Below are positions 9,110 through 63,646 of a stretch of DNA of 64,000 nucleotides, in pieces. Both the position numbers and the translations under genes were made by a program. Numbering within the stretch: the first letter of the stretch is position 1; the number at the start of each line of letters is the position of its first letter. This stretch comes from an uncultured Candidatus Rokubacteria bacterium (lineage in GTDB: Bacteria > Methylomirabilota > Methylomirabilia > Rokubacteriales > DASRDR01), in assembly GCA_963805625.1 (NCBI GenBank), contig CAWDVE010000010.1:960001-1024000 (forward strand), given 5' to 3'. The notes beneath the pieces were generated by a model. The model saw only the letters and a list, made by a program, of their open reading frames with translations. It did not search any database and had not been told where the DNA came from.

Positions 9110-10219
9110 TGGCCCGCCTGGGCGCCGGCCGGAACCTCGGCCGAGGCACGCGGCGGATGGTGCAGGAAGCAGCTCACAGCCACACCGCTCTCCCCGTCGA
9201 GTGGCAGGAGCTCCGGCTCGTGGCGCTCGCACGTGCCCCGGATCCACTCCACGCAACGCGGGTGGAACGGACAGCCCGCCGGCCGGTTATGGGGATGCGG
9301 GATGGAGCCCGCGATGGTCGGCAGCTTCGTCCGGACCTGGGCCTGGATGGACGGGATCGACCGCAGCAGGGCCTGCGTGTACGGGTGCCGGGGCGCGTGG
9401 AAGATCGCGTCCACCGGACCGCGCTCGACCACACGGCCGAGATACATCACCACTACCTCGTCGCACATCTCGGCGACCACGCCGAGGTTGTGCGTGATCA
9501 GGATGATCGCCATCCCTTCCCGGGCCTGCAGGTGGCGGAGCAGATCGAGGATCTGCGCCTGTGTCGTCACGTCGAGCGCCGTGGTCGGCTCGTCCGCGAT
9601 GAGGACGCGCGGCCCGCAGGCCAGCGCCGTGGCGATCATCGCGCGCTGTCGCAGGCCTCCGCTCATCTGGAACGCGTACTCGTCCACGCGGCGCTCCGGC
9701 TTGGGGATGCCCACCTGGCGTAGGAGGTCGATCGCACGCTCGCGCGCCCCGCGCGCATCCAGGCCGAGGTGAAGCCGGATCGTCTCGATCATCTGGTTCC
9801 CGACCGTGTGGACGGGGCTGAACGAGGTCATCGGCTCCTGGAAGACGAGCCCGATCTCCCCGCCCCTGATCTGGCGGATCTCCCGGCTCTCGGGATCGAG
9901 CTGCGCGACGTCCACCGTCTCCTCCGGCCGGCCGTTCGCGGACGGGCGCCGGAGGCGGATCTCCCCGCTCACGATCCGGCCCGGCCGCTCCACGATGCGG
10001 AGGATCGACCGCGCGGTGACGCTCTTCCCGCACCCGCTCTCCCCGACGATGCCGAGGGTCCGTCCCGCGTGGAGCTCGAAGCTGGCCCCGTCCACCGCCT
10101 TGACCACCCCCTCCTCCGCGAAGAAGTACGTCCTGCAGATCCCGCACCTCGAGGATCGGGGTCAGACTTTGACTTCTTAACAATCCCGCGTCACCCGTGG
10201 CGAATTGTTTGGAAGTCAA
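9106..10219 (-). CDS. ABC ATP-binding protein (OppD/DppD-like); +1 frameshift near 10136; 5' end lies in the palindromic element
   Basis: [25 protein letters not shown]-terminal TPILEVRDL is in another frame from [14 protein letters not shown]. Confidence 0.85.
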
Positions 10220-10231
10220 AGTCTGACCCCG
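10157..10231. repeat. Palindromic REP/MITE-like element, copy 1
   Basis: Perfect 20-bp IR cggggtcagactttgacttc / gaagtcaaagtctgaccccg, plus inner aacaat/attgtt. Confidence 0.9.
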
Positions 10232-11434
10232 TCAGTGGCCGTAGGGGTCGGCTGCGTCGCGCAGGCCGTCGCCCATGAAGTTGAACGCGATGATCACGAC
10301 GATCACCGGGACCGCGGAGAACAGGAGCCACGGCGAGATCGCGAGCGCCTGGATGTTCTGCGCCTGCTGGAGAAGGACGCCCCAGCTGATCGCGGGCGGC
10401 CGGAGCCCGAGCCCCAGGAACGAGAGCGACGTCTCGCTGATGATCATGGCGGGAATCGCGAGGGTCGTGGCCGCGATGATGTGCGAGAGGAACGAGGGCA
10501 CCATGTGGCTCAGGATGATCCGGGGGCGGCTGCACCCGGCCAGCTCGGCCGCCATCACGAACTCCTCCTCGCGGAGCGAGAGGAACCGTCCGCGCACCAC
10601 GCGGGCAAGCTCGGTCCAGCCGATCAGCGAGATGATCACCGTGATGGCGAGGTAGACCTGGATCACTGACCAGTCGTTCGGGAGCGCCGCCGCCAGACCC
10701 ATCCAGAGCGGGATCGTCGGGATCGACCGCAGGATCTCGATGACGCGCTGGATGACGGTGTCGATGGCACCACCGTAGTAGCCGGAGATGCCGCCGAGGA
10801 ACACCCCTAGCACGAGCGCGATCGCGACGCCCGCGAGCCCGATGGTCAAGGACGTCCGGCTCGCGTACACGAGGCGCGACCACTGATCCCGCCCCTGCTC
10901 GTCCGTCCCGAGGAGGAACAGCGTCTCCTCCGGCTGGGCGTCCTCGACGCCCACGAGATGGAGGCTCGCCGGAACCAGCCCGAGGAAGTGATACTCGAAT
11001 CCGCGCACGAAGAAGCGCACCCGGATCTTCTTCGACGAGTCCGGCGTGTAGACCCGCTTCAGCGTGACCGGATCGCGCTGGCCGGTCAGCCCGTAGACGT
11101 GCGGGGAGAAGTGGCCCTCTTCGAACCAGTGGATCCGCTGCGGGGGAAGCAGCGAGCGCTGGGCCTCGGACGCCGTCGGCGGCGCGTATGCCAGGAACTC
11201 CGCGAAAATCACGCCGAGGTAGAAGAGCACGACGATGACCGTGGCCACCATCGCCAGGCGGTGGCGCCGGAAGCGCCACCACATGAGCTGCCACTGGCTG
11301 GCAACCGAGATGCGCTCCTCGGCGACCTCGCCGACCGCGAGATCGATCCCGGCGGCGACAGGTTCACCGGCGTCGGACCCCGGGCTGAGCGCGGTGACGG
11401 GCTCCGCGGAATGCCGCGCGTGGGGGACCGGCAC
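10232..11434 (-). CDS. ABC permease (OppC/DppC-like)
   Basis: WWRFRRHRLA, LGTDEQGRD, EFVMAAELAG EAA loop, GDGLRDAADP; start uncertain. Confidence 0.9.
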   Translation of the reverse strand: MPVPHARHSAEPVTALSPGSDAGEPVAAGIDLAVGEVAEERISVASQWQLMWWRFRRHRLAMVATVIVVLFYLGVIFAEFLAYAPPTASEAQRSLLPPQRIHWFEEGHFSPHVYGLTGQRDPVTLKRVYTPDSSKKIRVRFFVRGFEYHFLGLVPASLHLVGVEDAQPEETLFLLGTDEQGRDQWSRLVYASRTSLTIGLAGVAIALVLGVFLGGISGYYGGAIDTVIQRVIEILRSIPTIPLWMGLAAALPNDWSVIQVYLAITVIISLIGWTELARVVRGRFLSLREEEFVMAAELAGCSRPRIILSHMVPSFLSHIIAATTLAIPAMIISETSLSFLGLGLRPPAISWGVLLQQAQNIQALAISPWLLFSAVPVIVVIIAFNFMGDGLRDAADPYGH

Positions 11435-11439
11435 CTCGG

Positions 11440-12434
11440 CTATCGCTTGCCTTCCATCCGGATGCGCGGATCGATCCAGAGCAGGAGGAGATCGGAGAGG
11501 AAGGTGCCGACCACCGTCAGGACTCCGAGCAGCAGGACGATGGTCCCGGCAAGGAACATGTCCTGGGCCACGAGCGCCTTCAGGAGGAGCGGCCCCACGG
11601 TGGGCAGACTCAGGACCAGGGACACGATGATGCTGCCCGACACCACGTACGGGAGGAGGTAACCGATCGTGCTCGCGAAGGGGTTGAGGGCCACCCGCAC
11701 CGGGTACTTCAGGATGACCCGCAGCTCGGGCACCCCCCGGGCGCGCGCGGTCATCACGTACGGCTTCCGGAGCTCGTCGAGCAGGTTCGCGCGCATGATC
11801 CGGATGAGCTGCGCGGTGCCTGCCAGTCCCAGGATGAGCGCGGGCAGCGGGAGGTGCTTGATCAGGTCCCACCCCTTGGCCAGGCTCCACGGCGCCTCGA
11901 TGAACTCGTCGGAGAAGAGCCCGCCGATGCTCATGTTGAAGTAGCGGAAGCCGAGGTACATGAGGACGAGGGCGAGCATGAAGCTCGGGACGGCGAGCCC
12001 GATGAAGCCGATGAACGTCGCGACGTAGTCCCCGACGGAGTACTGGCGGACGGCCGAGTAGATGCCGATCGGAAGCGCGAGGACCCACGTCAGGATGATG
12101 GCGGCCACCGAGACGACCATAGTGAGCCACAGGCGGTCCCCGATGACCTCTGAGACCGGGCGCCTCCACTCCAGCGCCATCCCGAACCGCCCCTGCACGA
12201 CCTGTTTCATCCAGCGGAAGTACTGGACCAGAAGAGGCTTGTCGAGCCCGTACTCGCAGTCGGAGGGCCTCCGCCTCCTGCTCAGAGACGCTCCCGCCCG
12301 ACGCCGACATCTGGGCGATGTAGGAGGTGATGTAGTCGCCCGGCGGCAGCTGGATGATGACGAAGGCGAGAACGGAGATCGCCCAGCACCGTGAGCAGCG
12401 CGAGGATCAGCCGCTGTACGAGATACGTGATCAC
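11440..12434 (-). CDS. ABC permease (OppB/DppB-like); two +1 frameshifts near 12385 and 12257
   Basis: VITYLVQRL / IIQLPPGD / YGLDKP..PYVMTARARG..DPRIR lie in three frames. Confidence 0.85.
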
Positions 12435-62496: not shown

Positions 62497-62596
62497 GGGC
62501 GAGGTTGCCGGCCAGCTCCGGCGCACGACCCCGAGAGGACTAACTATAATAATAGGTCCTGGAGTTGATGATCGACATGGCCACGCACGGTGTCCG

Positions 62597-63457
62597 ATGA
62601 GGCGATGCGTGACTGCGTGGCTGGCGAGCGTCCTACTGCTCGGCACGGCCGCGCCGGTCCTAGCCGAGACGGTCCTGGAGAAGATCAGCCGGACCGGGGT
62701 CCTGACCGCGGGGACACGGGGCACCTCCATCCCCTTCGCGTTCATCAACGAGAAGAACGAGTGGATCGGCTTCTCCATCGACCTGCTCGAGGCCATCCGC
62801 GCCCGCCTGGAGAAGAAGCTGGCCAAGCGCATCAAGCTCGAGAAAAAGGAGGTCACCCCGGCGACCTGGATCCGGCTGGTGGCCAACCGGAACGTCGACG
62901 TGGAGTGCGGGTCCACCACCCACACCCGGGGCCGGGACCGGGACGAGGCGGTGGACTTCTCCATCACCTTCTTCTTCACCGGTTCCCAGCTCCTGGTGAA
63001 GCAGAGCAGCGGGATCAGAAGCCTGGCGGACCTGGCCGGCAAGCGGGTGGGGGCCGCCCAGGGAACGACGAACGAGAAGGCCCTGCGCGCCGCCCAGCCC
63101 AAGGCCGACGTGGTGACCTTTCAGGACCACGCAACCGGCTTCCTCGCGCTGGAGCAGGGAAGGATCGTGGCCTATGTCTCCGATGGCATCCTCCTGGCCG
63201 GGCTGGGCGCCAAGGCCAAGAACGCCAAAGACTACGCGGTGGTGGGGGACTTCTTCTCGAAGGACCCTTACGCGTGCATGGTCCGGGAGAACGACTCCAA
63301 GTGGCGCGACTTCGTGAACCACACCTTCATGGAGCTCATTGACAACGGGAAGTTCTTCGAACTCTACGACAAGTGGTTCGGGGAGCGGGGCGTGGTCCCC
63401 TATCCCATGTCGGACCGGGTCCGGAACTACATGCTTATGCAGTCCATGCCCGAGTAG
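62597..63457 (+). CDS. Amino acid ABC substrate-binding protein, copy 3
   Basis: Close paralog, MRRCVTAWLAS..MLMQSMPE. Confidence 0.92.
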   Translation: MRRCVTAWLASVLLLGTAAPVLAETVLEKISRTGVLTAGTRGTSIPFAFINEKNEWIGFSIDLLEAIRARLEKKLAKRIKLEKKEVTPATWIRLVANRNVDVECGSTTHTRGRDRDEAVDFSITFFFTGSQLLVKQSSGIRSLADLAGKRVGAAQGTTNEKALRAAQPKADVVTFQDHATGFLALEQGRIVAYVSDGILLAGLGAKAKNAKDYAVVGDFFSKDPYACMVRENDSKWRDFVNHTFMELIDNGKFFELYDKWFGERGVVPYPMSDRVRNYMLMQSMPE

Positions 63458-63629
63458 GAACGAGGCTGGCGACCGGCGTCTGATCGGGGCCCCCGGTCGA
63501 TGCCAATGCCGGTACGGTCACCAGGATCCTGGGACGGAGGATGCGCGCCGCCTGAGCGCCGGCTGAGAGCCGGGTGTCTCGTTCTCACCGACGCGTTCCG
63601 GCCCTCCCTCACGAGAGAAGATGTCCGTG

Positions 63630-63646
63630 AGTCAAAGTCTGACCCC
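63630..63646. repeat. Solo arm of palindromic element
   Basis: agtcaaagtctgacccc, identical to the copy 1 right-arm core; possible decayed partner ~63572-63592. Confidence 0.75.

Follow-up and report, generated by a model that had tools for sequence, protein, structure and literature searches.

TIR dimers at gene junctions of a Candidatus Rokubacteria genome, likely spread in trans by a TIRYT transposase

The window studied here is a 64,000-nt stretch (G000:C10:960001-1024000) of the genome of an uncultured Candidatus Rokubacteria bacterium (G000; 7.27 Mb, 28 contigs, ~69% GC). It contains three inverted-repeat dimers and one solo arm of a dispersed repeat family. We propose with good confidence that these are TIR dimers, likely non-autonomous, which are made and spread in trans by the product of a TIRYT gene. 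That the repeats are of the TIR/TIRtron kind, and that the enzyme belongs to subclass 2.1 of the HUH/Y1 transposases (TIRYT), is well supported by sequence comparison. The association of TIRYT and arms is drawn from their co-occurrence, from arm types that track protein clades, and from seamless empty sites, and we infer that the arms are mobilized by the TIRYT. An initial annotation, made from the letters of the window, had suggested a non-autonomous family resembling REPINs or MITEs (miniature transposable elements with inverted repeats) and tied to an HUH Y1 transposase. Our analysis supports this suggestion, and relatives hold full-length Y1 genes between like arms. The family had also been called possibly undescribed, which holds only for the lineage and the arm sequence; its kind, TIR/TIRtron/TIRYT, has been described (PMC3733652; statements on cited papers refer to those parts of each text that were available).

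The arm has a consensus of ~28 nt in a weight matrix, GGGGTCAGACTTTGACTTC-N3-ACA-WTT. It starts with GGGGTCAG, which fits the outer motif GGGGWSAS of the TIR family. The shared part is longer than the ~15 bp first reported, and the inner extension ascribed to copy 3 is simply the full arm. The 14-mer GGGGTCAGACTTTG has 47 exact matches in the genome (24 on the plus and 23 on the minus strand), and the 28-nt weight matrix gives 88 matches above 14 bits compared with 3 (maximum 17.2 bits) in the reversed genome. On both counts the family is far above chance. Among 76 arms (75 at ≥22 bits, and the right arm of copy 2, added manually), 54 pair into 27 inverted dimers of 68–150 bp and 22 are unpaired by the pairing rule used; the repeats are thus dispersed as singles, dimers, and groups. 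Each dimer consists of conserved ends and a variable spacer, and folds into a long hairpin. A single arm holds only a short stem that requires G-T pairs, as judged by eye on the arm sequence. The G000 spacers are unique except for one tandem pair, and in the related genome G003 two spacer pairs are barely above the maximum similarity of the null. Spacer self-complementarity does not exceed chance (mean z −0.25, n = 25). By simple in-house gene calls, 20 dimers lie between co-oriented, 6 between convergent, and 1 between divergent genes. The window has zero matches in Rfam, and no type-A arm, the type found in the window, was found in IMG/VR viral contigs.

The window copies largely agree with their first description. 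Copies 1 (10157-10231) and 3 (21478-21562) indeed contain perfect inverted repeats of 20 and 29 bp, and the solo arm at 63630-63646 is present. Copy 2 (14694-14809) has the arm pair of the described hairpin, but its right arm is short by one base. The change from GAC to GCC is seen in both arms of copy 3. It had been read as pairing kept within the copy, for which it is weak evidence because the GCC sub-variant recurs in G003, G008, and G012. Covariation within copies is modest: both arms have the same non-consensus base in 3 of 26 pairs (null 0.8, p = 0.053), and at arm positions 20–28 a mean of 6.46 are identical within pairs vs 5.92 (p = 0.013). All three full copies sit between co-oriented genes as stated, but they are not purely intergenic, since their arms overlap stop and start codons.

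No Y1 transposase gene was found in the window, in agreement with the initial annotation; the sole Y1_Tnp match of the genome, at C4:136622-136789, lies outside it and is bracketed by the arms. This gene has 345 nt compared with 933 nt in relatives, and the deletion (approximately nt 200–816) removes the catalytic Tyr. An identical contig from run X1, which may be the source sample, spans the deletion. Because the enzyme lacks this residue, the family is probably no longer spreading in G000. A Y1 gene between inverted arms, hereafter the cassette, occupies the same locus in 9 of 15 genomes of the genus, with a total of 10 loci (G005 has it on two contigs). The locus is constant, with the aconitase promoter on one side and the 3' end of a POR/DUF6537 ferredoxin-oxidoreductase gene on the other. 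The final codons of the transposase gene, including its stop, lie in the right arm of the cassette, and on the opposite reading this arm can end the neighboring gene. Three genomes of the genus in which no Y1 match was found, G004, G007, and G011, have 0–1 exact arms of the three patterns. Aside from G000, the transposase genes of L013 (G001), L006 (G008), and L011 (G024) are likewise disrupted, through a stop or what looks like a frameshift.

The transposase has ~310 residues, with the motifs NHVH, FQG, and Y[IV]H[LQ]NP in the alignment of the relatives' proteins. The REP_Tyr_transpos model scores 81.3, 79.6, and 90 bits against a cut-off of 80, that is, about at threshold. A profile of 104 sequences matches DnaA domain IV (E = 1.5e-12; E. 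coli domain 1j1v, 6.7e-11) as well as TnpA_REP (4er8, 4.5e-6). The C-terminal helix-turn-helix (HTH) resembling Bac_DnaA_C was found by profile, its Pfam single-sequence scores being under the cut-off. An AlphaFold model built from a 7-row alignment was poor (predicted local distance difference test 57.9) and was not used. Of 200 genomes of the class, 8 contain the exact type-A 19-mer (6 from this genus, G000 included, and 2 from genus g18), and dimers of a related arm (type C) occur in at least 13 phyla (80 listed of at least 125 stretches). Among plasmids, 32 records have distant homologues, none of which spans 80% of the protein.

Arms in the genus are of three types, referred to as A, B-short, and B-long, and the transposase tree is sorted along these types (A vs B, 100/100; B-long, 100/100). 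The tree of the flanks is different. Each of three B-long loci pairs with A loci, and B-long monophyly is rejected with a p-value of 2.5e-68 in the approximately unbiased test (p-AU). Conversely, the transposase tree rejects three sister pairs of the flank tree (p-AU 7e-5, 1.6e-51, and 2e-45; the truncated G000 gene was excluded from the second tree). G000 and G010 are 96% identical in the flanks, and their transposase genes only 76% over the first 200 nt; outside its current left end, G000 retains an older, G010-like one. The cassette has therefore been swapped at least three times at one locus, with arm type tracking protein clade. Dispersed arms come in variants particular to each genome. 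They go with the cassette in G003, where most of the 77 carry the GGACA variant of its own cassette. The two G005 loci (L004, G005:C46; L015, G005:C19) have flanks 86% identical and different arm types, probably reflecting a mixed bin. CCAAA, the complement of the arms' own TTTGG, often stands in front of B-long arms (e.g., L004–L006, L010), and the functional end of this type may extend beyond GGGG.

Birth of a dimer from a cassette is visible in near-identical strains. Contigs of runs X2 and X8, from one study, join L001 position 1418 to 1862 (short sides of 113 and 103 letters), and X3 from a second study has a 12-nt loose end consistent with this joint. The cassette has thereby collapsed to a 113-bp dimer, whose spacer consists of the transposase 3' end and left inner DNA. 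Two dispersed loci of G014 bear the transposase 3' end and the outer flank of the cassette. Among the public-run matches listed (contigs only, low depth), we found no excision joints of the window's dimers. In G030 and G039, which hold another family, spacers group into families of constant length, with two copies identical over the part listed, and whole dimers appear to be copied as units, at least in this family. Two other origins of the spacers found no general support. Captured native intergenic DNA is not a general source, with 3 of 19 empty sites at p < 0.05 (Fisher p = 0.27), and spacers of type-A arms gave 0 matches to the TIRtron inner ends of the own cassette in G000, G003, and G010. 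A pooled comparison with inner ends gave 10.2 vs 9.65 of 18, a small excess that the pyrimidine-rich arm edge could account for.

Empty orthologous sites exist, as the initial annotation would have it for a mobile family. At one stop/start junction, TAG|ATG is clean in 5 of 15 genomes, another 7 carry the element at that exact point with no duplication, and 3 hold other inserts. Judging by the protein sequence, this junction is probably carA-carB. A pyrimidine precedes 43 of 48 G000 arms (Y at −1), and the outer flanks are otherwise variable. Elements are located exactly at stop/start junctions, with no target duplication and usually after a pyrimidine. The other inserts at this junction include related ones of 600–680 bp in L188 (G004) and L192 (G011), and a 16-nt stretch of the latter resembles the G001/G005 spacer.

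These alleles bear on a further explanation, namely that the repeat is a transcription-factor operator or the end of a MITE that a DDE transposase mobilizes. A unique interior between 28-bp inverted terminal repeats looks MITE-like, and the arm contains TTGACT, a −35-like hexamer. Against this, the clean TAG|ATG site shows no target-site duplication, dimers avoid divergent promoter gaps, no sigma-70 promoter-like match was found at the three window copies, and Rfam is silent. The only gene found bracketed by arms encodes an HUH/Y1 enzyme, although no search was aimed at DDE transposases. We consider this explanation very improbable.

Sites of insertion are used repeatedly. In most relatives the three window sites are filled as well, frequently with arms of another type, with decayed arms, or with a collapsed remnant, and site 1 is also filled in a paralogous operon of ~70% identity. 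At site 3, G000 and G013 have flanks 97–98% identical, with differing spacers and arm variants. We collected 80 element-bearing stretches from four relatives, 64 of which are syntenic in G000 and 62 of which were scored (2 long gaps were omitted). G000 has an intact or decayed element at the same junction for 37 of the 62 relative sites, which amounts to 26 of 49 distinct junctions (G003, 16/29; G013, 6/7; G010, 5/6; G014, 10/20). As a control, an arm at ≤5 mismatches was found in 13 of 500 random intergenic stretches. The arm type is switched at 6 of 26 shared intact sites, and the spacer is kept in 4/5 G010 and 3/5 G013 pairs, but only in 1/15 G003 and 1/5 G014 pairs; close relatives thus retain spacers, and others seldom do. 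Some remnants (the L150 and L141 orthologues in G000, and site 3 in G011) are collapsed. Because they keep only the outer GGGGT and GACCCC ends, they suggest that dimers may be lost through deletion between arms.

The age of the sites would also suit old fixed residents, kept as mRNA stem-loops and as suppliers of start and stop codons, with arms homogenized by gene conversion or interspecies recombination and without a transposase. Sites predate species splits and are even common to paralogous operons. Fourteen of 70 strong arms provide a neighboring stop codon. In each of the 13 alleles scored at site 1, the element forms an open frame with the downstream ATPase gene and contains an in-frame TTG, GTG, or ATG. 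Divergent gaps hold just 1 of the 27 dimers (p = 0.015), and trees differ between loci, which makes recombination between congeners plausible. Residents without a transposase are nonetheless improbable in view of the clean empty alleles and seamless insertions, the arms decayed or gone where the transposase gene is absent, and the dispersed G014 arms that bear pieces of the transposase 3' end and outer flank. Besides, 28 bp is short for homologous recombination. The supply of starts and stops would explain why old sites are rarely lost.

We then inspected dimer lengths. The 196 short-arm dimers from 11 genomes of the genus have length peaks at 72–76, 81–85, 92–96, and 103–106 bp (centered at 74, 84, 94, and 105). 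The best period is 10.7 bp (R = 0.45, p = 2e-4 vs both a jitter null and a log-normal null; genome bootstrap 10.35–10.85), and 156 of 196 dimers are within 2.6 bp of 73.5 + 10.5k, including 45 of the 60 with ≥88 bp. G003, G001, and G008 are each significantly phased on their own, and the window's three dimers (73, 115, and 83 bp) are all in phase. The 75 B-long dimers have a period of 10.4 bp (p ≤ 4e-4), with peaks offset by about half a turn. A size period of ~10 bp is a classic sign of two protein-bound sites paired on duplex DNA (PMC3464196). In the 73- and 84-bp classes of G003, spacers resemble one another no more than shuffles do (p = 0.11 and 0.20), a point against a recent founder effect. 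Multiples of 3 are also overrepresented among the lengths (97/196, p = 2e-6), and within the troughs these multiples are depleted (87 and 90 bp, 0 each; 78 bp, 4; 99 bp, 2) compared with 75 bp (20) and 84 bp (21).

The same lengths are open to another explanation, in which the family and the enzyme are the same, the enzyme acts like TnpA_REP on a single-stranded hairpin (formed by an entire dimer or by the weak stem within an arm), and the peaks come from a few founders and from selection for frame-preserving insertions. Characterized relatives act on single-stranded DNA (PMC8266576), every dimer can fold into a long hairpin, and REPIN doublets of P. fluorescens also lie at fixed distances of 71 and 110 bp (PMC3116915). 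The bias to multiples of 3, the fixed-length spacer families of G030 and G039, and the lack of periodicity across phyla point the same way. Against this explanation stand the depleted trough multiples, four evenly spaced peaks, a second arm class whose own series is shifted by about half a turn, and the unrelated spacers within G003 length classes. The enzyme also has a full DnaA domain IV, a duplex-binding type. We regard action on a single-stranded hairpin as rather unlikely, and still as the most serious of the alternatives.

A candidate for the duplex-bound site lies in the inner arm. Positions 17–25 read TTCNNNACA, and positions 17–19 and 23–25 (TTC...ACA) are 96–99% conserved in 76 G003 arms while 20–22 vary. 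The DnaA box is TTATnCACA, whose 5' TTA is read by Arg399, together with the helix 434–451 (PMC5742627). As we read the alignment, TIRYT R241 falls on E. coli DnaA Arg399, with R or K in 82% of the 104 rows, and D274 falls on Asp433. In B-long enzymes D274 is replaced by N or S, and ACA is missing from most B-long arms, but this amounts to a single evolutionary event. In the four length peaks, 3.1, 4.1, 5.05, and 6.1 turns separate the two 9-mers of a dimer. We offer TTCNNNACA as a candidate binding site of the DnaA-like domain, as a lead to follow.

Taken together, the arm would be bipartite, with an outer GGGG end and the inner TTCNNNACA. The C-terminal module resembling DnaA domain IV would bind TTCNNNACA on double-stranded DNA, and two bound arms could be paired only if both faced the same side of the helix. 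Nicking at Y|GGGG and rejoining without duplication would fall to the HUH domain. Older elements would likely serve as preferred targets, so that sites are old and arms are young, and copies would persist partly as their arms give stop and start codons to neighbors. In short, TIRYTs may find their ends on duplex DNA via a DnaA-box-like 9-mer, pair arms at whole turns, insert without duplication, and repeatedly overwrite older elements including their own cassette. A constant set of gene junctions would thereby be rewritten again and again, and the host would grow dependent on start and stop codons that the arms supply. We put this mechanism forward tentatively, at somewhat less than even chances.

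A number of observations weigh against the proposals made here. TTCNNNACA resembles the DnaA box at 5 of 9 positions, a partial likeness; His434 is not kept in TIRYTs (Pro in 46%), and ACA is at the matching place in only 35% of cross-phylum type-C arms. For G000 alone, phasing is not significant (p = 0.23), and 67 cross-phylum type-C dimers, one per genome, have no significant period (p = 0.23–0.35). The length set was compiled by hand from listings, with compound arrays and a few unrelated repeats omitted by eye, it includes at least those G001 and G008 dimers that were listed, and kin genomes in it share sites. In G030 and G039 length classes coincide with spacer families, so founders can make peaks. 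With regard to cassettes, G009, G012, and G013 have many arms and no Y1 match (several assemblies are incomplete), and in G001, G005, and G008 the dominant arm variant mismatches the cassette found; we read the arm variants as successive waves, some of whose cassettes were lost or unassembled. Re-occupation by whole-element replacement, by arm rewriting, and by interspecies allelic recombination look the same in these data. Finally, our literature searches found no biochemical study of TIRYT or subclass 2.1.

Within the window, the dimers take part in the reading frames of their neighbors (Table 1). On the minus strand, dimer 1 is open in frame with the ATPase gene from a TTG within the first arm. 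The one-base deletion in copy 2 puts an arm TGA in frame, which is the stop codon of the arginase-family gene; a sequencing error was rejected as its cause, the neighboring stop being kept in frame. In dimer 3, the ATG at 21536 in the right arm is in frame with the methyltransferase gene. For copies 1 and 3, the sole in-frame start codons near the downstream gene lie within the copy. Approximately at 10134, the dppD-like ATPase gene has one extra base compared with all aligned relatives, and the frame shifts a few codons after dimer 1, representing either an assembly error or a pseudogene.

Table 1. TIR elements of the window and the adjacent genes
Feature	Position	Strand	Remarks
TIR dimer 1	10158..10230	.	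73 bp; two inverted ~28-nt type-A arms and a 17-nt spacer; preceded by the stop of the dppC-like permease gene and followed by the dppD-like ATPase gene
TIR dimer 2	14695..14809	.	115 bp; arm 14783-14809 one base short
TIR dimer 3	21479..21561	.	83 bp; GCC sub-variant in both arms
Solo type-A arm	63619..63646	-	place of the partner arm taken by ~4.4 kb (59187-63612) in G000
Oligopeptide ABC ATPase (ABC_tran, oligo_HPY)	9106..10219	-	start inferred inside dimer 1
Oligopeptide ABC permease (BPD_transp_1, OppC_N)	10232..11434	-	stop codon 1 nt from dimer 1
Arginase/agmatinase family gene	14796..15797	-	ends inside dimer 2
Class I methyltransferase (Methyltransf_25)	21536..22324	+	first codons from dimer 3

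At the junction of the solo arm, G014 has a complete 83-bp dimer. The block that is missing from the G014 junction carries an ABC-type substrate-binding gene and three tandem paralogues (60710-63457), with SBP_bac_3 confirmed for the last of the three. Arm density in G000 is uneven, with 63 per Mb on C4, the cassette contig, zero on C12, C14, C16, C21, and C24 (1.59 Mb summed), and the arms of C10 confined to 0.6–2.0 Mb. A further repeat, starting with GGGGTCAGACCCC and differing from types A and B inward, occurs at G012:C80:24217, G014:C5:232417, and G008:C39:122975.

Among known systems, the closest are the TIRtrons of Di Nocera, De Gregorio, and Rocco (2013), which are Y1 genes between long inverted repeats starting with GGGGWSAS; the TIR repeats are moderately abundant and occur as singles, dimers, and groups, and their mobilization by TIRYTs was proposed and left untested (PMC3733652). 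The family described here shares the RAYT-like gene between GGGGWSAS repeats, a repeat that can overlap the 3' end of the gene, and the dispersed copies (PMC3733652). It differs in its arm sequence, which is largely limited to one genus, and the available text of that paper is silent on length phasing, a DnaA-box-like motif, cassette exchange, site re-use, and dimer birth by deletion (PMC3733652). In the literature that we found, five features are unreported: the length phasing, the DnaA-box-like inner arm, the cassette swap, the re-occupation of junctions by other arm types, and the cassette-to-dimer collapse. Likewise, literature searches returned no report of helical spacing or same-site replacement of REPINs or TIRs.

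In the classification of Quentin (2018), subclass 2.1 probably corresponds to TIRYTs and such proteins fall in 2.1.2; subclass 2.1 is the second-largest TnpA-Y1 group, present in 14.9% of strains, and no function was settled on for its DnaA-like tail (PMC6006769). Our enzyme resembles TnpA-Y1 2.1.2, equivalent to RAYT Group 1, in NHVH, FQ, and Y[IV]HLNP and in the C-terminal Bac_DnaA_C-like HTH (PMC6006769; PMC5581495). These motifs were seen in the relatives' alignment, the G000 gene having its Tyr motif deleted. RAYT Group 1 also lacks GTAG REPs and has moderately abundant flanking repeats, as far as those sources go (PMC6006769; PMC5581495). Quentin set only the outer GGGG[AT][CG]A[CG] against the DnaA box, saw no resemblance, and questioned whether the HTH recognizes the target, or else suggested a new target (PMC6006769). 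Here it is the inner arm that shows a TT....ACA pattern. That study also found no REP-like sequences for 2.1 (PMC6006769), whereas genomes here have 40–80 arms each.

Similar to REPIN-RAYT systems of Groups 2 and 3, the family has a single-copy transposase at a fixed extragenic site and inverted doublets with conserved ends and a variable spacer (PMC3116915; 2021.07.10.451892). It also shares decay after transposase loss and differing repeat classes at syntenic transposase loci ('orthogroups'; PMC3686654; 2021.07.10.451892), different REP classes at syntenic RAYT loci having been reported by Nunvar (2013; PMC3686654). The family is not a canonical GTAG-tagged REP/REPIN. The GT[AG]G tetranucleotide was not found at the palindrome foot, any palindrome within an arm appears weak by eye, and copies are in the tens, not hundreds. 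It differs further in arms that overlap stop and start codons and in a transposase tree incongruent with the flanks. The cassette swaps contradict the strictly vertical inheritance described for REPIN-associated RAYTs (2021.07.10.451892).

IS200/IS605 elements have a short TnpA (Y---Q), distinct subterminal hairpins on the left and right, and often tnpB, whereas the family here has a ~310-residue protein with Y---NP and matching inverted ends; on this protein, the IS200 model scores 16 bits against a cut-off of 55. Unlike MITEs of DDE transposases, it makes no target-site duplication, as seen at the TAG|ATG junction with and without the element. The ~10-bp periodic lengths of short elements are shared with the internal eliminated sequences of Paramecium (Arnaiz 2012; PMC3464196), and the shortest dimers here, 61–72 bp, are close to the minimum of 64–70 bp that the same source gives for bacterial transposons. 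Those sequences, as well as IS50 and IS1, depend on DDE enzymes acting on duplex DNA, whereas characterized HUH/Y1 transposases act on single strands. For IS50 and IS1, helical twist reportedly constrains short transposon ends, as cited by Arnaiz 2012. Duplex recognition by TIRYTs, if true, would depart from the single-strand hairpin rule of HUH transposases. In this genus an enzyme and its matched substrate are at hand, along with a candidate for the binding site, another for the cut site (Y|GGGG), and a rule for spacer length, so that a few gel assays could put the mechanism to the test.

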